This document shows, piece after piece, positions 22,897-42,111 of a stretch of DNA of 64,000 nt. The notes under the pieces were generated by a model, which did no database searches, was not told where the DNA came from, and saw only the letters and a program-made list of their open reading frames with translations. The stretch covers positions 48,908-112,907 of the forward strand of contig JADHMQ010000003.1 in NCBI GenBank assembly GCA_016779935.1, read 5' to 3'. The translations under genes were made by a program, and so were the position numbers. The first letter of the stretch is position 1, and the number at the start of each line of letters is the position of its first letter. The stretch comes from Flavobacteriales bacterium. Its GTDB lineage: Bacteria > Bacteroidota > Bacteroidia > Flavobacteriales > UBA7312.

Positions 22897-23754
22897 TTAA
22901 TACTCCCAAAGATCGTGTTCGATATTGAATATCTCTTCCTTTATTTTTTCAGCCTCAAGCAAAGCATCAATACCTTCTTTATACTCTGATATTTTTCTGT
23001 CATATTTATTTGACTCCTTGACAATTCGACTACTGAAAAATCGCTTGTGAAAAATATCGTCATAAGTTAAACGAGCTGCATCATTTTTTCTGTGATTGAA
23101 AACTTCAGCTTTAGAAAGAATTTTTCTTGCTTCAGGAAAATACACCCAAAATAATGAGGTTTCACCAGTATAAACACCTTCTTCATTTTTACGGTCAATA
23201 ACCGGACATATTCCAATGATTCTAACTTCCATTACAGAACGTTGCTTGTCAAAAAACCATTCCTCTTTGATTCTATATTTCTTAACCTCATGTCTCTCAA
23301 AAATATTAAAAGTTGTATCTAAATAATATTCTTGCGTATCAGGGTCAAATCGTTCTTCAACAGACATTTTCTCGCCTTGCATAATACCAATCATCTCAAC
23401 TTCTGAAGGTGACATCGGAGATTGAAATTCATCATCGTTGGTTGCATTACCGTAAGCTGTAATTGTCCCTTCATCAATTGCTTGCATAAGCACATCAATT
23501 AAATTCTGACGGTCATTTATTGGTAAAAGAGGGTAATAGAATACCTGATTCATTTTCTCTCTTAAATCAATGATTCTTTCGATTTTTGTAGACCACATTA
23601 CATCTGCCTCGCGAACATGTTGATATGGCTGAATCATTCTTTCTTTTCCGCCATCACGAATATCTTTTTCATATGCACCGTCAAGAATGTCTTGCGCGGA
23701 TACAATCTGTGAAAAACATATCAATGAAATAATTACTAAAACAATATTTTTCAT
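22897..23754 (-). CDS. gldN: Gliding motility / T9SS protein GldN
   Basis: 285 aa with a signal peptide. PYQHVREADVMWSTKIERIIDLREKMNQVFYYP is the conserved GldN block, and the gene lies directly after gldM. Confidence 0.85.
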   Translation of the reverse strand: MKNIVLVIISLICFSQIVSAQDILDGAYEKDIRDGGKERMIQPYQHVREADVMWSTKIERIIDLREKMNQVFYYPLLPINDRQNLIDVLMQAIDEGTITAYGNATNDDEFQSPMSPSEVEMIGIMQGEKMSVEERFDPDTQEYYLDTTFNIFERHEVKKYRIKEEWFFDKQRSVMEVRIIGICPVIDRKNEEGVYTGETSLFWVYFPEARKILSKAEVFNHRKNDAARLTYDDIFHKRFFSSRIVKESNKYDRKISEYKEGIDALLEAEKIKEEIFNIEHDLWEY

Positions 23755-23764
23755 AATAATAGAT

Positions 23765-25429
23765 TTAATTTACGGTAAGCTTTACAGATGGCAACGACTT
23801 AGGCGCACCGTCTGGTCCCTTACATGTAATATTAGTAAAATAAATAACAGAACCAATCTGAAGTGATTCAAATAAGGTTTTCATTTCACCAGTAACCTTG
23901 TTTCCTTTGGCATACTTGGTAACTAACTCACCTCTTTGTGTAACATCAACAGAGAAACCTGTGATACTATATCTAATGTCAAAAACGAAATTACTTAACT
24001 CTGCATATAACTTAGCATTATTAGAAAGTAATTGGCTTTTCTTAATTTTTTGGTTCTTAGACCCTAAAAATTTTGGCTCTGGCTTAGGAGTTCTCATTAC
24101 TCTAAATTCGAGAGAGCCCATATTACGTCTTTTCCCATCAACTTCTGCAACTACATTAACTTTTGCACTACCTGTTTTCTTTGGGAAAACTTCCCATCCG
24201 CCACCAGCTACTTTTTTAACAACACCATTATCACAAGAAACGCTAATTTTATCTTTAGGTACACCAGGAACTGAAACGTCTATTGGGTTTCCAAGTGCAC
24301 CATTCTTTAGTGGGTGACTTGCTAAAATGTAAAATACATTCATCTTAGTTGGCGAGATAACTAAACTTGGTTTAGCAACTTGGTATTCACCATTAAAAGG
24401 GTAAATTTTATCACCAACATCTGTTTTCATAGATATTAAACCACCCCATTTCTTGTATCCTTGTGATGAGGTTTTAACAGCATATTTTCCTTTACCAGCT
24501 AGAACAGGTATAGAATCATAATCTCCAACCATTTTATACTTACCATCCTCACCAAGTTCATAATCTCCAACATAAATAATTGGGTTTTGGGTAGTATCCT
24601 TTGCTGCTAAAAATACATCTGCCTTAAAAGAGTCACCTAAAAACACATAGTTAGAAGTAGCAATTTGTATAGCATCAGCAGAAGTAAACTTTAAAGAACC
24701 TGCATCAATTTCTTGTTGTAAAAACTTAATAACATCCGACTCTGCGTTTCTTACATCTGTTTGTATTTTTGATAATATGGTAACAGCAGCAATAAGCGGC
24801 ATATCTTGAAAGTTTTGTTGCACCCAAGATAACATTCCTGAACCATATTTTTCTTTTCTTTCTTCAAATGTAAAAGTTGTAGATAATGACGATTGAATAG
24901 ATGGTTCATTTACCATTTCTTTCAAGAAGTCTCTGTATGCCTCCAAACTTTCTTGTAGAATTGCTCCATTACCTTTATTAATCATTAACTCCCCTGGTCT
25001 TTCTCTATCTTTTTTACTAATGACATCTACCATTAGTTTTTTCTTCTGAGCTGCTGATAAATCATCATATGTAACATCTTCTAATGGCTCTTCACCTTCG
25101 AAAGTAACTTGCTTATCTGAAAGCATTACCATATCAAATTTGAGCCTCTGAATGTCATCGACAATTTTGTCTGCTTTAGCCTTTACACTAAAAGCCTTGT
25201 CACGCCATGGACCAGCTTTAGCTTCGTTTGTCTCAGCTGCAGAAACAAATGAAGAATATACTTCATCATTTTTACTATTGAAATTTTGGGTTGTTTTTAC
25301 AATCCCACCATTAATTTTTTGAAAGGCATCAAGAACTTCTTTGGATACATTTAATGCTAACATTGCTGTTAGCACCAAATACATCATACCAATCATCTTT
25401 TGCCTTGGCGATAAATTATTTCCTGCCAT
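23765..25429 (-). CDS. gldM: Gliding motility / T9SS protein GldM (PorM)
   Basis: 554 aa. The N-terminus MAGNNLSPRQKMIGMMYLVLTAMLALNVSKEVLDAF is the canonical GldM start with a single TM. Confidence 0.9.
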   Translation of the reverse strand: MAGNNLSPRQKMIGMMYLVLTAMLALNVSKEVLDAFQKINGGIVKTTQNFNSKNDEVYSSFVSAAETNEAKAGPWRDKAFSVKAKADKIVDDIQRLKFDMVMLSDKQVTFEGEEPLEDVTYDDLSAAQKKKLMVDVISKKDRERPGELMINKGNGAILQESLEAYRDFLKEMVNEPSIQSSLSTTFTFEERKEKYGSGMLSWVQQNFQDMPLIAAVTILSKIQTDVRNAESDVIKFLQQEIDAGSLKFTSADAIQIATSNYVFLGDSFKADVFLAAKDTTQNPIIYVGDYELGEDGKYKMVGDYDSIPVLAGKGKYAVKTSSQGYKKWGGLISMKTDVGDKIYPFNGEYQVAKPSLVISPTKMNVFYILASHPLKNGALGNPIDVSVPGVPKDKISVSCDNGVVKKVAGGGWEVFPKKTGSAKVNVVAEVDGKRRNMGSLEFRVMRTPKPEPKFLGSKNQKIKKSQLLSNNAKLYAELSNFVFDIRYSITGFSVDVTQRGELVTKYAKGNKVTGEMKTLFESLQIGSVIYFTNITCKGPDGAPKSLPSVKLTVN

Positions 25430-25463
25430 TAGATTTTTCTAATTTAATAGTAAAAATTATTTT

Positions 25464-26090
25464 TTATTTATTGCTCATTGCGTTAAGCATATTCGCATAC
25501 ATTTTGTTAAGCGCTTCTAAATTAGCACCCAACTTAGATATTTCTGATTGGAATTTCTCAGAGTCACCAACAGAGTTACCCATATTTTGCATTGTCTTAA
25601 GTTGCAAATCATAGTATGTGTTCATTTCAGCTAATTTTCTAGCTGCTTCACGCATTTGGTCACTGTAATCTCCTGTAGCAGAAACAGCATCCATTGATTT
25701 ATTTACACCTTCAACAGTTTCATTAAATGATCTTAAGTTATCTCCTAATCGAGTAATAAGAGCTTGATCAACATTTGCTTTTCCAAGCATATCATCCAGT
25801 TCTTGAACAGGAGTATTTTTCTTAGAAGACGAAGATTTATCATCTGGATCTTTCATATATGCCAATTCTGGATATACTAAACTCCAATCCGGATCTTCGT
25901 GTGGTTTTTCAAAAGCAGAAAAGAAGAAAATTATTGCTTCTACAGTAAGACCAATAGTTAACATGGCTCCTGCTCCTGTCCAGTGTTGTAGCTTAAATAA
26001 TGCACCAAGGATTACAATAGCAGCACCAAACCCATACAGCTTGGCCATGTTATTTTTAAATTTCTTTGAATTGGGGTTGATTAATGCCAT
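25464..26090 (-). CDS. gldL: Gliding motility / T9SS protein GldL (PorL)
   Basis: 208 aa. It has two N-terminal TM helices (KLYGFGAAIVILGALFKLQHW; MLTIGLTVEAIIFFFSAFE) followed by a helical tail. Confidence 0.9.
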   Translation of the reverse strand: MALINPNSKKFKNNMAKLYGFGAAIVILGALFKLQHWTGAGAMLTIGLTVEAIIFFFSAFEKPHEDPDWSLVYPELAYMKDPDDKSSSSKKNTPVQELDDMLGKANVDQALITRLGDNLRSFNETVEGVNKSMDAVSATGDYSDQMREAARKLAEMNTYYDLQLKTMQNMGNSVGDSEKFQSEISKLGANLEALNKMYANMLNAMSNK

Positions 26091-26124
26091 AATACTATTT
26101 GCTAAAAAATTTAATTGTTAAAAA

Positions 26125-27444
26125 TTATCTAAAATCTACTTTATCTCTACCTAAGAAAGAAATCACGTTTCTAAACCCGATATATGATTTAGCCGTATCT
26201 TGAAATTCATAATCTCTTGTTCCTACTTGTATGAAGTGAGAAATATCTTTCCAAGAACCACCACGAATAACCTTTCTCTTTAAAATTTGAGGGTCGGAAT
26301 CCTGAGCGTCGTAGTTGAAATCCATATTCATATCGTGAGAGAAATTAAATGCTGACTCATCATAAGCATTACTTGTCCACTCTGAAACGTTACCAGCCAT
26401 ATCGTACAATCCAAAGTTATTCGGATTATAAGATGCAACCTTTACTGTTTTGATACCACCATCGGCTACATAGTTACCTCTCCTTGGCTTGAAGTTAGCA
26501 AGAAAACAACCTACCTCGTTGGTAGTATAAGGCCCTCCCCATGGATATGGCGATAAATCAAAACCACCTCTGGCTGCGTACTCCCACTCTGTTTCTGAAG
26601 GAAGACGAAACTCATCATGTAAAGGCTCTTCTCTTTCGATTAAATATTTATCAAGAATACTTGTTCTCCATTTTGAAAAAGCTACAGCCTGCTTCCAACT
26701 AACACCCACGACTGGGTAATCATCAAATGCTGGATGATGGAAATAATTTCTTGACCAAGGGTCATTGTACGAATAGGTATAATCCGAAGTCCAAACTAGT
26801 GTGTCTGGGAAAATATTAATTTCAGGTTTTTCAATGAAGACTGATCTGTCTTTTTTACCTTGAGCTTTATTTTCTCTAGAAGATGCACGCTGAATATCAA
26901 CATCTTCAAATCTAAAGTTATATTTTCTAGTATCAAATTCTCTTCTTGAATAGAATCTTTCGTGTTCTGGCAAATACATTTCATCCTCAAGAACTTCACG
27001 AACCTCAGTGTCATCCCATCTAATAGATCTACTCCAATCAATGTGAGGTGGGTCAATAAAGTTACCGTAGTCATCCTCTTCTATGAGTTCATAACCTTCG
27101 ACACCATTTTCTCCTAGTATAACTCTAGCGATTGAATCTCTAACCCACTCAACAAATTGTCGGTATTCATTATTTGTAATTTCAGTTTCATCAATGTAGA
27201 ATGCTGCTACAGAAACTGTTTTGTGTTGCGTTACATGAGCATAAGGAACATCTTGGTCACCAGGTCCCATGTTAAAACTTCCCTGAGGAATAAATACCAT
27301 TCCGTAAGGGTCAGTTGGATTCCAGATAGGTCTATTCTGAATACCTATCAGTTCGCCATTACCAGAAGTAGAGCAACTTGCCAATACTACTGCGACGAAT
27401 CCAAAGACAAATAAATTTTTCATAATACTTTTATTTTGCCTCAA
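26125..27444 (-). CDS. gldK: Gliding motility / T9SS lipoprotein GldK (PorK, FGE-sulfatase fold). The likely start is ATG 27423.
   Basis: It has the lipobox MKNLFVFGFVAVVLASC followed by PYGMVFIPQGSFNMG, plus SUMF1-like motifs (GNVSEWT; RGGSW). The track start at 27444 is a TTG. Confidence 0.9.
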   Translation of the reverse strand: MRQNKSIMKNLFVFGFVAVVLASCSTSGNGELIGIQNRPIWNPTDPYGMVFIPQGSFNMGPGDQDVPYAHVTQHKTVSVAAFYIDETEITNNEYRQFVEWVRDSIARVILGENGVEGYELIEEDDYGNFIDPPHIDWSRSIRWDDTEVREVLEDEMYLPEHERFYSRREFDTRKYNFRFEDVDIQRASSRENKAQGKKDRSVFIEKPEINIFPDTLVWTSDYTYSYNDPWSRNYFHHPAFDDYPVVGVSWKQAVAFSKWRTSILDKYLIEREEPLHDEFRLPSETEWEYAARGGFDLSPYPWGGPYTTNEVGCFLANFKPRRGNYVADGGIKTVKVASYNPNNFGLYDMAGNVSEWTSNAYDESAFNFSHDMNMDFNYDAQDSDPQILKRKVIRGGSWKDISHFIQVGTRDYEFQDTAKSYIGFRNVISFLGRDKVDFR

Positions 27445-27533: not shown

Positions 27534-28514
27534 TTATAGATATCTAGGGTTTTTAAATCCTTTGACAACCTTGTTATAATCTATTTTAAAGCAATATCCC
27601 AACATAAATTCAAAGCTTCCAGATGTAGAAACGTTTGTAGTAGGAATATCGTATGAGAATCCAAATTTCAAATCATCGTTGATGTGCATACCGAGTAATA
27701 GTACTGCACGGGAACTAGGTCTATATGTAACTCCACCCCACAACTTTTTATTGTATTCGAGTATTGAAGTTAAGTCTAGAGTAGTTGTAACTCCCTCTGT
27801 TTTAACAAGTAAGGAGGGTTTTACATCAATTTTTGGATTTAATTCGTGAACGTATCCAGCCGTTAAATAATAATGCCTTTTAACGTCAAATATATCTAAA
27901 GAGGTGGTAATTGTTGGCTCATTTATGTGCTTAGATGATAAGCCAACATAAACCTTATCGGAGTTAAAAAATAAACCAGCTCCTAGGTCAAAGCTTGAAC
28001 CTTTTTCAGTTGAAGTTGGTATGGAAGGGTCTGGATTTTCAGTGATTATGCCACTTCCGTCTAAACCGTCTTGCATTACACCAACAGAAACACCAATTCC
28101 AAGTTTACCACCAGCGACATCAAATCTGTAAGCGTAAGAAAGATTCAGAGATAAAAATTCGTTTTGACCAATTTTATCAGTAAGTATATTTAGACCTACA
28201 CCACCATGCAATAATTGTAATGGGGATTGAACTGACAAGTTAGTTGTTACAGGAGCATCTTCAAAACCAACCCACTGAGAACGGTGAAGAGCCGTAGCAC
28301 ATATTGCTTCCTCATATCCAGACGATCCAGGGTTAAACGATAGATTGTTAAAGATATATTGACTAAATTGAGGATCTTGCTGCGCTTTAGAATGAAAAGC
28401 AAGAGTAAACAACAAGAAAAGCAAAAAATATTTTTTCATAAAAGGTAACGACAAAACGTTTATCACAATTAATATTCGGCTAAAATAACTATTTTTTTTT
28501 AGTAGAAAAAGCAA
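27534..28514 (-). CDS. PorP/SprF-family T9SS outer-membrane beta-barrel protein. The likely start is ATG 28439.
   Basis: MKKYFLLFLLFTLAFHSKAQQDPQFSQYIFNNLSFNPGSSG is the typical PorP/SprF start. The body has an alternating beta-strand pattern and ends FKNPRYL. Confidence 0.8.
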   Translation of the reverse strand: MLFLLKKNSYFSRILIVINVLSLPFMKKYFLLFLLFTLAFHSKAQQDPQFSQYIFNNLSFNPGSSGYEEAICATALHRSQWVGFEDAPVTTNLSVQSPLQLLHGGVGLNILTDKIGQNEFLSLNLSYAYRFDVAGGKLGIGVSVGVMQDGLDGSGIITENPDPSIPTSTEKGSSFDLGAGLFFNSDKVYVGLSSKHINEPTITTSLDIFDVKRHYYLTAGYVHELNPKIDVKPSLLVKTEGVTTTLDLTSILEYNKKLWGGVTYRPSSRAVLLLGMHINDDLKFGFSYDIPTTNVSTSGSFEFMLGYCFKIDYNKVVKGFKNPRYL

Positions 28515-32183: not shown

Positions 32184-33629
32184 ATGAGCGAAGAGAAAAT
32201 AATTGATGCCAGCAGACAAGGAGAAGCCCTATCGATTGAAAGCCATTCAAAGAATAGCAAAAAGATGTATATTGAAAGCTATGGGTGTCAAATGAACTTT
32301 TCTGATAGCGAAATCGTAGCGTCAATTTTAAGCAAAGAAGGGTTTTCGACAACGCCAAACCTTGAAGATGCCGATATCGTATTTGTAAACACTTGCTCTA
32401 TACGTGAAAAAGCTGAGCAGACCGTTCGTAATCGATTGAAAGTGTATCGCGCAATCAAGAAAAAACAAAATCCAAAAATGCTTGTAGGCGTATTGGGCTG
32501 TATGGCGGAACGCTTAAAAGATAAATTTCTTGAAGAAGAAAAATTAGTCGATATGGTTGTTGGTCCTGATGCATACCGCGATTTACCAAACCTCATCGAT
32601 GAAGTTACTGACGGAAGAAAAGCAGTAAATGTTATTCTTTCTAAGGAGGAGACTTATGCGGAAATTAGCCCCGTTCGATTAGGCGGAAACGGTATTACCG
32701 CTTTTGTCTCAATCACTAGAGGGTGCGATAATATGTGCACGTTTTGTGTTGTTCCCTTTACTAGAGGAAGAGAAAGAAGTAGAGACCCTAAAAGTATTGT
32801 TCAAGAATGCCAACAACTTGTAAACGATGGCTATAAAGAAGTAACGCTTCTAGGACAAAATGTTGACTCATACCTATGGCATGGGGGTGGATTAAAGAAA
32901 GACTTCAACAAGCTCAGTAAGGAAGAGCAAGAAAACAGCACAAACTTCGCTCAACTGTTAGCAATGGTGGCAGAGGTAAGCCCTGAACTCAGAGTACGTT
33001 TTTCAACCTCTCACCCTAAAGATATGCAAGACGATGTGCTTCATACTATAGCTGAATACGAAAACATCTGTAACTATATTCACTTGCCAGTACAATCTGG
33101 AAATAGTCGTATTTTAGAATTAATGAATCGTGGCTACAGCAGAGAATGGTACCTCAACAGAATAGAATCTATCAGAAAAATTATTCCTGATTGCGCTATT
33201 TCTATGGACATTATTTCCGGCTTTTGTTCTGAGACTGAAGAGGAACACCAAGATACACTCAGCCTCATGGACATTGTAAAATATGACTTTGGCTATATGT
33301 TTAGTTATTCCGAACGTCCAAACACACAAGCTCAAAGAAAGTTTGAAGACGATGTTCCAGTAGATGTAAAGAAAAGACGTTTGCAAGAAATTATTGACAA
33401 GCAAATGGGACATTCATTAATTAGAAACCAAAATCATGTAGGTAAAACTCACAAAGTTTTAGTTGAAGGTGTATCCAAAAAATCCAAAGAAGAATTATTT
33501 GGAAGAAATACTCAGAATACAGTTGTTGTTTTCCCTAAGGAAGACTACAAGATTGGGGACTATGTTTTAGTTGAAGTAGACCAATGTACATCTGCAACCC
33601 TAAAAGGTAAAGCAATAAAAAAAGCATGA
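32184..33629 (+). CDS. miaB: tRNA-2-methylthio-N6-dimethylallyladenosine synthase MiaB
   Basis: 481 aa. It has [15 protein letters not shown], the radical-SAM motif [11 protein letters not shown], and a C-terminal TRAM domain. Confidence 0.95.
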
Positions 33630-34777
33630 CGCTACATCAAGACATAAAACAACGTTTTGGTATTGTTGGTCAATCCAGCAAGTTAGAGCGTGCTATAGAA
33701 ATTGCGGTTCAAGTTGCTCCAACTGATATCTCTGTCTTGATAACAGGTGAAAGTGGTACTGGTAAAGAATCTATGCCTAAAATCATTCACCACAGTAGTC
33801 AACGCAAACACAACAACTATATAGCGGTAAATTGTGGAGCTATTCCAGAGGGCACTATTGACAGTGAACTTTTCGGTCATGAAAAAGGAGCATTTACTGG
33901 AGCTAGTGACAAAAGAAAAGGGTATTTTGAAGTAGCCAATGGCGGCACTATTTTTCTGGATGAAGTAGGTGAATTACCAATGAGCACACAGGTTAGACTC
34001 TTAAGAGTTCTTGAAAGTGGTGAGTTTATGAAAGTTGGGTCTAGCGAACTCATTAAAGTTGATGTTAGAGTAGTCGCCGCTACCAATGTTAACATTGAAA
34101 AAGCCATTCAAAACGGCAAATTCAGAGAAGACCTCTACTACAGGCTCAATACTATAAACATTAAAATGCCTTCTTTAAAAGAAAGAAAAGAAGACATTCA
34201 TCTTTTGTTTAGAAAATTTGCTGCCGACTTCGCCGACAAATACAGAATCCCTGCCATAAGACTAAATGAAGAAGCCATAGATTTATTGGAAAGTTATTCT
34301 TGGCCAGGAAACATTAGACAACTGAAAAACATTTGCGAACAAATTTCTGCAGTTGAACAAAACAGAAGCGTTGACAAAGAAACATTGAGCCATTACATTC
34401 CAAAAGAGAATGCTACTCCAGTATTATTTGGAAAAGGAAAGGCTGAAAACGATTTTTCAGAAAGGGAGATTTTATATAAAGTCCTCTTTGATATGAAAAA
34501 TGATTTAAATGATTTGAAGAGGGTTACCAAAGAGTTAATGGAAGGCAATGTGGTTGTTCCTGAGGAAAATACATTAAAAGAAAAATTCTTCATTCAGCCA
34601 AAGGAAGAAGCATCCCAAAAATTGCCTGAGAAAGAAATCTTGACCCTGCAAGAACAAGAGAAAATTCTAATCGAAGAATCTTTAATTCGACATCAAGGCA
34701 GACGAAAGGATGCCGCTGACGAGCTAGGTATTTCAGAACGAACACTTTACCGAAAAATTAAAGAATACTTACTTTGA
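33626..34777 (+). CDS. Sigma-54-dependent transcriptional activator (AAA+ plus Fis-type HTH, no N-terminal sensor/receiver domain)
   Basis: 383 aa. It has Walker A GESGTGKE, the GAFTGA loop (EKGAFTGAS), Walker B IFLDEV, the [12 protein letters not shown] motif, and the C-terminal [19 protein letters not shown]. The AAA+ core begins about 10 residues after the start. Confidence 0.85.
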
Positions 34778-35274
34778 AAAACGTGAAAAAATACATAGCA
34801 ATACTATCCTTAGCAATTAGCTCCTGTGGAGTATATACATTTTCTGGGGCATCAATTTCTTCTGATGTAAAGACTGTTAACATTCAATTTTTTGAAAATA
34901 AAACTGCTCTTTCACCGTCCAATTTATCAAATAACTTCACAGAAGCTCTTAAAGACAAATTATCTTCTGAAACAAACCTTAATCCAGTATCATCAGATGG
35001 AGACTTAACTTATTCTGGATATATTTCAAATTATGTTATAAAACCCATAGCCATTCAGGCTAATGAAACAGCTGCTAAAAACAGATTAACCATTTCTGTT
35101 AGAGTAACTTTTACCAATAGCGTACAGGAAGAATATAATTTTGAGAAAACATTCAGTCGATATGCAGACTACGATAGTAGTGATGATTTTAAATCGGTAG
35201 AAGAAACTTTAAACGAAGAAATTACCGAGCAATTGATAGATAATATTTTTAACGAATCCATTTCAAATTGGTAA
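34774..35274 (+). CDS. lptE: LptE-like outer-membrane lipoprotein
   Basis: 166 aa. It has the lipobox LAISSCG and the pattern YTFSGASI..VKTVNIQFFENKT..LTYSGYISNY..RLTISVRVTF seen in Bacteroidota LptE-family proteins. The miaB-EBP-lptE order is one I recall as conserved. Confidence 0.55.
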   Translation: MKNVKKYIAILSLAISSCGVYTFSGASISSDVKTVNIQFFENKTALSPSNLSNNFTEALKDKLSSETNLNPVSSDGDLTYSGYISNYVIKPIAIQANETAAKNRLTISVRVTFTNSVQEEYNFEKTFSRYADYDSSDDFKSVEETLNEEITEQLIDNIFNESISNW

Positions 35275-35990
35275 ATCTTCAAGAGAAATATACACAATGG
35301 GTTAAGCAACCACATACTCTCAAAAGAGAGGATTCAGAAACTTTAAAAGAATTGGTTGATAAATACCCTTTTTGCCAGACTAGCCGATTGCTTTACCTTA
35401 AAAGTTTACAAAACATAAATAGCATTCATTTTAACCAAAGTTTAAAGGTTACAGCTGCCCACGCTTCTGATAGGCATCAGCTGTTTCATTTGCTTACCGA
35501 AAAGAAATCGAAAGTAGAAAAGAGTAAAATTAAGAACGTTGACAAAATTGATTCACAAAAAACTGATGAGACACCCAAAGAAGTCATTAAAGAATCATTA
35601 AACATCGGTCAACCTTTAGAGTTTGAAAAAGAAGAAACACACTCCTTTAGTCAATGGTTAAAACTTAGTCAGGCTAAACCAATAGTAAGAGAAAAAGAAG
35701 AAAATAAATTACAGGAAAAGGTTAGCCTTATTGAAGACTTTATTGCCAACAGAGAAAGAAAACCGCAAAAGAAAGAATTTTACTCGGCTACTAATCAAGC
35801 CAAAAAAAGTGAGAAATTTGAATTTGATATTGTTACAGAAACCCTCGCTAAAGTATATCTAGAACAAGAACATTACGAAAAAGCCAAAGAAGCATATCGT
35901 CAACTTTGTTTGAAATATCCCCAAAAAAGTTCTTTATTTGCATCCCAAATTGAATTAATCGATCAATTAATTGATCAAAACAATAAATAA
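35268..35990 (+). CDS. Hypothetical protein with a C-terminal TPR-like motif
   Basis: 240 aa with a TTG start overlapping the lptE-like stop. The middle is Lys/Glu-rich. YLEQEHYEKAKEAYRQLCLKYPQ looks like a single TPR. Confidence 0.4.
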   Translation: MVNLQEKYTQWVKQPHTLKREDSETLKELVDKYPFCQTSRLLYLKSLQNINSIHFNQSLKVTAAHASDRHQLFHLLTEKKSKVEKSKIKNVDKIDSQKTDETPKEVIKESLNIGQPLEFEKEETHSFSQWLKLSQAKPIVREKEENKLQEKVSLIEDFIANRERKPQKKEFYSATNQAKKSEKFEFDIVTETLAKVYLEQEHYEKAKEAYRQLCLKYPQKSSLFASQIELIDQLIDQNNK

Positions 35991-35995
35991 GAGTT

Positions 35996-36331
35996 ATGTA
36001 CACTATATTTTCAGTTCTAATCATCATCACATGTATTCTGCTTCTTTTAGTAGTATTAGTTCAAAATCCTAAAGGCGGTGGTCTTTCGGCAACTTTTGGT
36101 GGTGGAAATCAGGTAATGGGTGTCAAAAAAACAGCTGACTTTTTAGAAAAAGCCACTTGGTATTTAGCTATAGCACTATTATTCTTTTCATTAATGTCTA
36201 ATTTAAGTATTTCGTCAACTGTTGATGAAAACGGTCAAAATGAATCTATTATTCAAGAGCAATTAGACGAAACGCCAATACCCACTCAGAGTTTACCAGC
36301 ACTGCCAATTCAGGAAGCACCTGAAGAATAG
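35996..36331 (+). CDS. secG: Preprotein translocase subunit SecG
   Basis: 111 aa. It has LLLLVVLVQNPKGGGLSATFGG followed by a second TM. Confidence 0.85.
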   Translation: MYTIFSVLIIITCILLLLVVLVQNPKGGGLSATFGGGNQVMGVKKTADFLEKATWYLAIALLFFSLMSNLSISSTVDENGQNESIIQEQLDETPIPTQSLPALPIQEAPEE

Positions 36332-36386
36332 TCATATACTTTCTGACATAATTTCAAACTGGCTGAAAAAAAGTCATCAAATCTAT

Positions 36387-36416
36387 AAAGTGTGTCCTTG
36401 TGGCACACTTTTTGTC
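36387..36416 (+). promoter_or_regulatory. 8-bp inverted repeat with a 9-nt spacer (AAAGTGTG-N9-CACACTTT) overlapping TGGCAC-N5-TTGT (sigma-54-like -24/-12), upstream of groES
   Basis: The arms are at 36387-36394 and 36404-36411. TGGCAC is at 36401-36406 and TTGT at 36412-36415. The groES ATG is at 36458. Alternative reading: a weak intrinsic terminator of secG. Confidence 0.35.
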
Positions 36417-36457
36417 TTAATACTAAATGTCGAACATTAACAATTAAATTTAATCTT

Positions 36458-36727
36458 ATGAATGTAAAACCACTAGCAGACAGAGTATTAGTAGAACCTG
36501 CACAAGCTGAAACTACTACAGCTTCTGGAATTATCATTCCAGATACTGCACAGGAAAAACCACAAAAAGGCACAATTGTTGCCGTAGGTGATGGCAAAAA
36601 AGACGAGCCACTAACAGTAAAAGTTGGCGATACTGTACTTTATGGAAAGTACTCGGGAACAGAACTAAAATTTGAAGGAAAAGACTACATGATTATGAGA
36701 GAGTCTGATATCCTTGCAATTATTTAA
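36458..36727 (+). CDS. groES: Co-chaperonin GroES
   Basis: [35 protein letters not shown]. The track ORF (36392) is extended upstream by 22 codons to a GTG start. Confidence 0.95.
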
Positions 36728-36735
36728 AAAATTAA

Positions 36736-38370
<1,635 letters not shown>

Positions 38371-38388
38371 GATTATATAATCATTAAT

Positions 38389-38421
38389 AAAAAAAGGCTC
38401 AATTAAATTGAGCCTTTTTTT
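38389..38421. terminator. Bidirectional Rho-independent terminator between groEL and the convergent acidic-protein gene
   Basis: The sequence is AAAAAAA-GGCTCAA-TTAAA-TTGAGCC-TTTTTTT. It has a perfect stem and is flanked by A7 and T7, so it can work on both strands. Confidence 0.8.
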
Positions 38422-38446
38422 ATTAATAACTTAAATAGGAGAACTC

Positions 38447-39043
38447 TTACCTTTCTAAAGTCATTCTTTTTTCTGCTGATCCATCACTATAGATATAAAT
38501 TAAAGGCTGATTTTGTATGAATGGAACTCTTCTACCTTGTAAATCAAGAACATCTAATAATTCTCTTTTTTGAATATTAGATTTAATGACTTTATTATTA
38601 TAGAAATATGAAATGCTATTAAAAAAATCAGAAAATATTGTGTCATTAATTACTATCGTATCACCAATCACATCAAAATCATCTATATCAGTGCCAGTAA
38701 ATGTAGAGTTTTCTAATTCGGAAATTAATTCATTTAAATCATTACCGAAATTATTAGTTAGAAAATCAATGACGTCATCTAGACTCAAAAATTCAAGTTC
38801 GTCAGAGTCCGAATCATCTTCAAAATCTGAGTCGAAAGATAAATCATCACAATTGAAAAACAATTGTAAATCAGCATCATTAAATTCTCCATCGTTATTG
38901 AAATCAATTTGTGAAAGATTCTCGTATTCCTCAAACGAAATTATGAAATCTTGACCTCCACAATCAAAGGTGTAAGTCTCTTCTGCCTGAACTATTACTA
39001 GAGTGGTTAAAAAGGCAATTAATGAAAGGATTGGTTTTTTCAT
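38447..39043 (-). CDS. Small, extremely acidic secreted protein with one EF-hand/dockerin-like Ca-binding loop and a possible short T9SS C-terminal signal
   Basis: 198 aa with signal peptide MKKPILSLIAFLTTLVIVQA. The loop DFNNDGEFNDAD (nt 38870-38905) fits DxNxDGxxxxxD. There are long D/E/F/S runs. The C-terminus VLDLQGRRV..LIYIYSDGSAEKRMTL weakly resembles a T9SS CTD end. Confidence 0.5.
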   Translation of the reverse strand: MKKPILSLIAFLTTLVIVQAEETYTFDCGGQDFIISFEEYENLSQIDFNNDGEFNDADLQLFFNCDDLSFDSDFEDDSDSDELEFLSLDDVIDFLTNNFGNDLNELISELENSTFTGTDIDDFDVIGDTIVINDTIFSDFFNSISYFYNNKVIKSNIQKRELLDVLDLQGRRVPFIQNQPLIYIYSDGSAEKRMTLER

Positions 39044-41513: not shown

Positions 41514-41544
41514 TTTGCAAGTTGTTGATTAATTATTACATTTG
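41514..41544 (+). promoter_or_regulatory. Bacteroidota sigma-A promoter for rplU-rpmA: TTTG-N19-TACATTTG
   Basis: The -33 TTTG is at 41514-41517, followed by a 19-nt spacer and the -7 TACATTTG at 41537-41544. This places it 40 nt upstream of the rplU ATG at 41584. Confidence 0.5.
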
Positions 41545-41583
41545 CACCCCACAAAAAATAGTGGATTAAAAAAAACATTTAGA

Positions 41584-42111
41584 ATGTATGCAATTGTAGA
41601 AATAGCAGGGCAACAATTCAAAGTTGAAAAAGACCAACAAATCTTTGTTCATCGTCTAGATAGCAAAGAAGGTTCTAAAGTTGAATTCGATAAAGTTTTA
41701 TTGATTGACAATGGCGGAAAAATAAATGTTGGCGCCCCAGCTATCAGTGGTGCAAAAGTAACTGCAAAAGTGCTTGGCCACATGAAAGGTGACAAGGTAA
41801 TTGTCTTCAAAAAGAAAAGGAGAAAGGGATACAAAGTGAAAAATGGTCACAGACAATCGTTTTCTCAAATTGAAATTCAAAGCATTGTTGAAAAAGGTGC
41901 TTCTGCCAAAAAAGCTACTCCAAAAGAAGAAGCTAAGCCAGTAGAAAAAAAGGCAACAGCAGCTAAAGCAACTGCCAAAAAAGATGCAGCTCCTAAAAAA
42001 GCAGCACCAAAAAAGGCAGTGGCAGCAAAGCCTAAAGCAGCAGCTAAAAAGCCTGCCGCTAAAAAAGCAACAACTGCTAAGAAGACAGCAGCTAAAAAAA
42101 CTGACAAATAG
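41584..42111 (+). CDS. rplU: Ribosomal protein bL21 with a ~70-aa Lys/Ala-rich C-terminal extension
   Basis: MYAIVEIAGQQFKVEKDQ..GHRQSFSQIEI is the bL21 core. The tail is KKATPKEEAKPVEKKATAAKATAKKDAAPKKAAPKKAVAAKPKAAAKKPAAKKATTAKKTAAKKTDK. The track start at 41542 is a TTG inside the promoter box. Confidence 0.9.
   Translation: MYAIVEIAGQQFKVEKDQQIFVHRLDSKEGSKVEFDKVLLIDNGGKINVGAPAISGAKVTAKVLGHMKGDKVIVFKKKRRKGYKVKNGHRQSFSQIEIQSIVEKGASAKKATPKEEAKPVEKKATAAKATAKKDAAPKKAAPKKAVAAKPKAAAKKPAAKKATTAKKTAAKKTDK

Follow-up and report, generated by a model that had tools for sequence, protein, structure and literature searches.

About 30 bp upstream of groES in the DNA analyzed here (a stretch of 64,000 nt, hereafter the 64-kb window) carry two overlapping features, an inverted repeat and a sequence resembling a sigma-54 −24/−12 element, and the question raised by this locus is what each of them does and for which gene. 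A preliminary description of the sequence read them as a novel heat-shock operator of CIRCE geometry, a sigma-54-driven groESL promoter, or both, and named a weak intrinsic terminator of secG as the competing explanation. We assessed these readings against orthologous loci, predicted RNA structure and published transcription start sites.

Gene organization around secG and groES

The genes on either side of the site were assigned as follows.

32184–33629, + strand: miaB (from Pfam or translation)
33626–34777, + strand: sigma-54 activator (enhancer-binding protein, EBP) gene (Pfam Sigma54_activat, AAA_lid_14 and HTH_8)
34774–35274, + strand: lptE (from Pfam or translation)
35996–36331, + strand: secG (Pfam SecG), final gene of the operon upstream
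36458–36727, + strand: groES (Cpn10; 76–87% identity to GroES of Flavobacteriia and Cytophagia)
36739–38370, + strand: groEL, with a strong bidirectional terminator downstream (38389–38421)

The ORF between lptE and secG encodes 240 aa with weak TPR matches that lie under the Pfam curated cut-offs. The start of the activator gene overlaps the miaB stop by 4 nt (33626–33629), its end overlaps the lptE start by 4 nt (34774–34777), and 7 nt are shared by lptE and the next ORF; these overlaps suggest a tightly coupled operon, miaB–EBP–lptE–TPR–secG. For comparison we used 80 groES loci from one-genome-per-species collections (Flavobacteriia, Cytophagia and other Bacteroidota) and 80 secG loci taken from metagenomes, together L001–L160, with groES present in 140. 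The order miaB–EBP–lptE–TPR–secG–groES–groEL is kept in most of these 140 loci, Cytophagia included. The secG–groES gap measures 126 nt in the window and 93–131 nt in its relatives, versus 140–200 nt elsewhere.

The terminator at 38389–38421 is a near-palindrome (AAAAAAAGGCTCAATT.AATTGAGCCTTTTTTT, −16.4 kcal/mol on both strands) that sits between the convergent groEL and ORF 38447–39043. An Rfam scan of 35000–38600 at E up to 1 gave no match at the hairpin site described below and returned only weak sRNA matches over the groEL terminator, which are explained by that terminator.

A conserved sigma-54 element precedes groES

The promoter features are the following.

36401–36415, + strand: sigma-54 −24/−12 element TGGCAC-ACTTT-TTGT of groES-groEL (TGGCACACTTTTTGT), assigned by exact match and conservation
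36428 (accuracy about 2 nt), + strand: predicted groES transcription start, from an offset transferred from Flavobacterium psychrophilum, giving a 30-nt leader

The element has its GG at 36402–36403 and its −12 G at 36414, and it matches TGGCAC-N5-TTGC at 9 of 10 defined positions with the correct GG-to-G(C) spacing of exactly 10 nt, as the preliminary description had reported. It is the only exact TGGCAC-N5-TTGY site in the 64 kb and, at 17.6 bits, the top-scoring site of the window under a position weight matrix (PWM) of the 80 genome loci (training range 9.4–25). TGGCAC strings occur 14 times on both strands of the window, 8 of them on the + strand, which equals the chance frequency; the earlier tally of three was too low. 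Of the 14, only the groES copy has a −12 element. What makes the motif significant is its conservation rather than the number of copies in the window.

That conservation is extensive. TGGCA followed by C or T precedes the groES ATG in all 80 genome loci, at a distance of 49–123 nt (median 71), and the next base is A in 75 of them, ahead of a T-rich spacer. The −12 G, at a fixed spacing from the GG, is kept in 79 of the 80 orthologous sites; A follows it in 40 of them, C in 27 and T in 12, and with T in 12 of 80 the TTGT of the window is normal for this promoter family. Sites scoring at least 9 were found in 133 of the 140 groES-containing loci. In one close relative (L173:479-603, alignment A2 column 76) the −24 reads TGGTAC instead of TGGCAC, with the corresponding hairpin pair retained as G·U, and one F. 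psychrophilum promoter of the class described below has TTGGTA; together these indicate that promoters of this group tolerate replacement of the C of GGC.

The sigma-A −7 box TAnnTTTG is absent from the + strand of the 126-nt secG–groES gap, in agreement with what had been noted before. A sigma-70 scan of the same gap gave no match, a result that is uninformative since Bacteroidota sigma-A uses TAnnTTTG.

Published data place a sigma-54 start at the orthologous position. Guerin et al. (2021, ISME Commun; PMC9723704) mapped 5′ ends in F. psychrophilum and identified the motif SM4 as the sigma-54 −24/−12 element, with SM4 promoters that include those of groES-groEL, lon, dnaK, grpE-dnaJ, htpG, skp and clpB. 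The groS entry of their Table S2 gives a start at 867211, an SM4/Sig54 probability of 1 and a 30-nt leader, and the promoter sequence listed there (AAAaaatgtcagttttaaatccTTGGCATAATTTCTGAAAAG...; aaatgtcag...TTGGCATAATTTCTGA) has the architecture of the window (PMC9723704). By that entry, the distance from the T of TGGCA to the mapped start is 27 nt, and the ATG follows 30 nt further on. Transferring this offset would put the start in the window near 36428, again with 30 nt between it and the ATG (36458); the preliminary estimate of about 30 nt thus agrees with the leader measured in F. psychrophilum. A 2025 PSSM survey likewise reported sigma-54 promoters enriched at GroES, GroEL, DnaK, DnaJ, GrpE and IbpA genes in Flavobacteriia, Bacteroidia and Cytophagia (PMC12316311), and control of Bacteroidota chaperone genes by sigma-54, which takes the place of sigma-32 or HrcA, has been described before (PMC9723704, PMC12316311). 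Conserved in every relative examined and orthologous to a promoter with a published start, 36401–36415 is the predicted sigma-54 promoter of groESL, as had been proposed.

Elsewhere in the window, the second-best PWM match (TGGCATAATCACTGA, 28039–28053, − strand, 15.7 bits) lies inside a PorP/SprF-family ORF (27534–28514), about 600 nt upstream of gldK-gldL-gldM-gldN (22897–27444), and may represent either an internal promoter or a match by chance. A gliding operon is among the sigma-54 targets of F. psychrophilum. The remaining PWM matches in the window score 13.3 or less, and there is no second clear promoter among them.

The inverted repeat forms a terminator-like RNA hairpin at the end of secG

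Two further features overlap the promoter.

36387–36411, + strand: RNA hairpin with a 10-bp stem that includes G·U pairing, AAAGUGUGUC / GGCACACUUU (36387–36396 / 36402–36411), and a 5-nt loop, CUUGU
36412–36420, + strand: T-rich tail of the hairpin, TTGTCTTAA, which is also the promoter −12 region

At the DNA level, the feature is a perfect 8-bp inverted repeat, AAAGTGTG (36387–36394) and CACACTTT (36404–36411), with a 9-nt spacer and its end 47 nt before the groES ATG, exactly as first described. In RNA the stem continues through wobble pairs to the 5-nt loop, which makes the 9-nt spacing incidental. The window shows no excess of perfect 8-bp inverted repeats whose spacers measure 3–12 nt (17 observed versus 18.7 expected), and about 0.037 would be expected in a 126-nt gap; on its own, the repeat is only mildly unlikely.

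The hairpin has a predicted stability of −11.9 kcal/mol (z = −3.7 to −3.9), with 4–5 G–C pairs in the 10-bp stem, and it starts 56 nt downstream of the secG stop codon. Its tail plus the last three stem bases read UUUUUGUCUU; this U-tract is interrupted and has three of its U's inside the stem, from which termination may be only partial. The tract passes both the rule of the terminator scan, which flags 36387–36411 as terminator-like, and a whole-window filter for + strand hairpins of −9 kcal/mol or better with a U-rich tail. Only three + strand features pass that filter, located after secG (36387–36411), after groEL (38389–38421) and after the gene at 41542–42111. Among the loci where secG abuts groES, 81 of 106 have a separate secG terminator, a hairpin plus T-run, upstream of the promoter; the secG–groES gap of the window contains no other candidate for one. 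The inverted repeat is thus most likely the intrinsic terminator of secG and its operon, overlapping the −24 element, and transcripts would end there.

A role as an RNA thermometer or groES leader structure was also considered and rejected: with the predicted start downstream of it, the hairpin would not be transcribed into the groES mRNA.

Conservation separates the hairpin from the promoter

Among the loci compared, the −24/−12 element is conserved widely and the arms only within the genus-level clade. Across the 133 orthologous promoters scoring at least 9, the longest perfect repeat overlapping the −24/−12 element is 3–5 bp in 116; repeats of at least 8 bp over the promoter occur only in the window (8 bp) and in L085 (unrelated sequence, 14 bp in full), and the repeat of the window is absent from 131 of the 132 other promoters in this set.

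The five nearest metagenomic relatives (L081–L085), whose SecG is 67–82% identical to that of the window, all keep the promoter, with L084 carrying TGGGAC for TGGCAC (PWM 8.6, just below threshold), and none keeps the left arm of the repeat. The repeat is absent from L082, L081 and L083, where folding is no better than in shuffled sequences (−4.3, −5.4 and −1.5 kcal/mol, respectively), and no hairpin whatever is seen in L082 and L083, which belong to the nearest of the more distant relatives, indicating that some lineages can dispense with a terminator at this position. In L085 and L084, strong but non-homologous hairpins with T-runs enclose the same promoter (−16.5 and −15.8 kcal/mol, respectively).

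Ten genus-level contigs with identical GroES retain the repeat, in an alignment that is 89% identical overall. In their nine distinct sequences, all 90 stem cells pair (alignment columns 59–68 / 74–83): the three stem substitutions (UA to UG, GC to GU, and CG/UG) are all one-sided wobble changes, none of the nine sequences has a double compensatory change in the stem, and two loop positions vary freely. Statistically, the support from wobble changes alone is weak, with p roughly estimated at 0.02–0.1, and the right arm is under promoter constraint as well. Substitutions of this kind keep the RNA helix and break the symmetry of the DNA dyad, which points to an RNA hairpin rather than a DNA binding site.

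The sequence of the repeat is equally unlike a known operator. CIRCE has the consensus TTAGCACTC-N9-GAGTGCTAA, with 9-bp arms. The arms AAAGTGTG and CACACTTT are unrelated to it, as the preliminary description itself had recognized, and no CIRCE-like site occurs anywhere in the 64-kb window at up to 3 mismatches. The repeat is also absent at four Flavobacterium dnaK promoters.

Helically phased boxes and a candidate activator

Upstream of the hairpin, two candidate activator sites were identified.

36343–36349, + strand: distal box CTGACAT, with TGACA at 36344–36348, 57 nt before the T of TGGCA
36363–36377, + strand: proximal box CTGAAAAAAAGTCAT, with AGTCA at 36372–36376, 29 nt before the T of TGGCA

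These boxes belong to a wider pattern. In the 100 nt upstream of the groES sigma-54 element in L001–L160, TGTCA/TGACA occurs 1.99 times per 100 nt versus 0.27 in other non-ORF DNA of the same loci, about a 7-fold difference. TGTCA starts cluster at −17, −27, −38, −47, −58, −68 and −78 relative to the T of TGGCA, with a best period of 10.2–10.3 bp (Rayleigh R 0.81, and 0.73 without the dominant −17 class), and TGACA has a period of 10.5 (R 0.61); since the loci are phylogenetically related, the nominal p-values of this phasing overstate its significance. The 5-mers with the strongest periodicity are without exception contained in TTGTCAGT or its complement. The proximal box of the window is invariant in 10 close relatives and fills the −27/−28 phase class of the TGTCA boxes, and the box CTGAAAAAAAGTCA is kept in four of the five nearest metagenomic relatives, the L084 version having diverged. 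The distal box falls on the −57 peak of TGACA/TGTCA positions, where relatives have TGTCA or TGACA.

The same arrangement recurs at a second chaperone gene. Four Flavobacterium dnaK loci (L161–L164) have a sigma-54 site, TGGCAC-N5-TTGC or TTGA, 68–71 nt before the ATG, and each has 3–5 boxes, at −25/−26, −59, −67, −93 and −103, in the same phases as at groES. According to the entries considered in Table S2 of PMC9723704, which give about 23 nt upstream of the −24 element, F. psychrophilum has a box at −17 that reads TGTCA at groS and TGTCC at clpB; five non-chaperone SM4 promoters show no such box in the roughly 23 nt available. The chaperone-restricted pattern that these entries describe is suggestive only. 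Across the flanks of the 160 loci, only 11 other sigma-54 sites score at least 15, and these are mostly not upstream of genes.

The activator gene at 33626–34777 ends 1.6 kb upstream of the site on the same strand, where the preliminary description had placed a sigma-54 activator, and the Pfam domains listed above support that identification. Its translation contains the GAFTGA motif, whose presence implies that sigma-54 (rpoN) is encoded in the genome. The AAA+ domain begins at residue 13, with no N-terminal regulatory domain, and the protein aligns end to end with the PspF model at 273 bits against an equivalog cut-off of 443 bits; the score below the cut-off indicates a PspF-like layout, not a PspF orthologue. 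Together, these observations suggest that the boxes are a chaperone-specific protein site dependent on the face of the helix, with the linked activator as the obvious candidate to bind it. Judged by gene order and motif statistics, this PspF-like protein is the most likely candidate for an activator of the groESL promoter. Our literature search found no described enhancer or activator specific to the Bacteroidota chaperone regulon.

Across genera, most Flavobacteriia share a secG terminator hairpin of conserved sequence (for example L004, L008, L026, L055 and L112), with stems of ATGTCAG/CTGACAT or ATGCCAAC/GTTGGCAT and often an extra TGTCA/TGACA in the loop. Hairpins built from the box words, with a cross-genus conservation unusual for a plain terminator, may double as palindromic protein sites.

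Discussion

We consider it probable that two ordinary signals of neighboring transcription units, a sigma-54 promoter of groESL and a terminator of secG, share the same 30 bp. Under this model, sigma-54 RNA polymerase would bind 36401–36415 as a closed complex and start near 36428, giving a 30-nt leader, and would fire only after remodelling by an AAA+ enhancer-binding protein. The PspF-like activator encoded 1.6 kb upstream may act through the helically phased boxes at −29 and −57. Transcripts of miaB–EBP–lptE–TPR–secG would fold the 10-bp hairpin, followed by UUUUUGUCUU, and terminate, which would insulate groESL from read-through; the 3′ arm of the hairpin and its U-tract would be encoded by the −24 element and the T-rich sigma-54 spacer. 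The short secG–groES gap in the lineage of the window would explain why the terminator overlies the promoter.

Three other explanations were weighed against this model. That TGGCAC-N5-TTGT is a chance match, with secG read-through or an overlooked sigma-A promoter supplying the groESL transcripts, could draw on the chance-level frequency of TGGCAC in the window, on the missing canonical C of the −12 element, and on the apparent risk of sole reliance on an activator-gated promoter for an essential chaperonin. A motif that all relatives examined, from two classes, have unchanged and at nearly the same distance, together with a mapped start at the orthologous site, makes this extremely improbable, and its two alternative sources of transcripts face a terminator-like hairpin between secG and groES and a gap without TAnnTTTG. 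If the repeat were a DNA operator bound by a heat-shock repressor, in the manner of CIRCE/HrcA, and occluded or modulated the sigma-54 promoter, this would explain why a perfect 8-bp dyad with a 9-nt spacer lies exactly over the −24 element, why the 10 closest contigs keep it, and why it stands where so few repeats are expected by chance. We nevertheless regard an operator as very unlikely: it shares no sequence with CIRCE, it is missing from all but one of the 132 other promoters, the exception being L085, whose repeat is of unrelated sequence, and it is absent from L081–L083. The L084 and L085 hairpins differ from it in sequence and register, which fits a structural RNA signal, and variation within the clade loses DNA symmetry and retains RNA pairing by G·U, in a stem whose extension to the 5-nt loop renders the 9-nt spacer incidental. 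The proposal of a novel heat-shock operator of CIRCE geometry is therefore set aside.

The repeat might instead be functionless, a chance product of an AT-rich spacer beside a constrained promoter that has been kept through low divergence. The chance-level number of 8-bp repeats in the window is compatible with this, as are the lack of double compensatory change and the hairpin-free L082 and L083, and conservation weighs little in an alignment that is 89% identical. Against it stand a stability of z about −3.8, membership in a set of three strong + strand hairpin-plus-T-run features that all lie at gene ends, a position equivalent to the secG terminator of 81 of 106 relatives, and three stem substitutions that all keep pairing beside a loop free to vary; we judge a functionless repeat unlikely. 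The same stability, gene-end position and wobble-preserved pairing favor the secG terminator that had originally been offered as the competing explanation.

The model of a promoter and a terminator sharing one site allows groESL of an uncultured marine flavobacterial MAG to be annotated firmly as under sigma-54 control, as in F. psychrophilum, and it reduces an apparent new operator to an ordinary terminator packed onto a promoter in a compact genome. Given that sigma-54 chaperone control is already published, the instance in the window adds little new biology. The testable lead is the phased TGTCA box common to groES and dnaK, together with a candidate activator linked by gene order. We put forward tentatively, as a possibility that may well not hold, that the TTGTCAG / CTGACA phased boxes at groES and dnaK are the enhancer through which the sensor-less PspF-like activator beside groESL drives a heat-shock circuit common to the phylum Bacteroidota, and that in many Flavobacteriia the secG hairpin may double as a palindromic enhancer. 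This lead could reveal the way in which heat or unfolded protein is sensed in Bacteroidota, a matter that we did not find settled in the literature searched.

Comparison with known systems

CIRCE/HrcA, which acts at groESL and dnaK operons in Firmicutes and many other phyla, resembles the window in having an inverted repeat with a 9-nt spacer before groES. The arms in the window are 8 bp rather than 9 bp and unrelated to TTAGCACTC; in addition, the repeat is not conserved across orthologous loci, varies by RNA wobble rules, and overlaps a sigma-54 promoter, not one of the sigma-70 type. Rho-independent terminators provide the closer likeness: a stable 10-bp stem-loop with 4–5 G–C pairs, a flanking AAA...UUU extension and U-rich tail as in the A-tract/U-tract type, and a location 56 nt past a stop codon, equivalent to that of the secG terminators of relatives. 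The hairpin of the window differs from them in its interrupted U-tract and in being superimposed on the promoter of the next operon, so that its right arm is promoter-constrained too.

The E. coli pspA promoter and its activator PspF share with the window a TGGCAC-N5-TTGC-type element, a stress-response regulon, and an activator composed of only an AAA+ domain and a C-terminal HTH, without an N-terminal sensory domain. In contrast to the PspF system, no PspA-like partner is evident beside the activator of the window, the regulon consists of cytoplasmic chaperones, and the candidate sites lie in helical phase from −17 to about −100, whereas PspF uses a distal UAS with IHF bending.

The closest counterpart is groS-groL of F. 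psychrophilum. It has the gene order activator–lptE–x–secG–groES–groEL as in the window, the same −24/−12 layout (TTGGCATAATTTCTGA in F. psychrophilum and GTGGCACACTTTTTGT in the window), a TGTCA-type box upstream, and membership in a chaperone/protease sigma-54 regulon; the 30-nt leader is shared as well, provided that the start offset is transferred to the window. The two loci differ in the base after the −12 G, which is A in F. psychrophilum and T in the window, and in the position of the box, which is TGTCA at −17 in the former and AGTCA at −29 in the latter, 12 bp further upstream or about one helical turn. They differ also in the secG terminator, which lies upstream of the promoter in F. 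psychrophilum and, as predicted from sequence for the window, overlaps it here.
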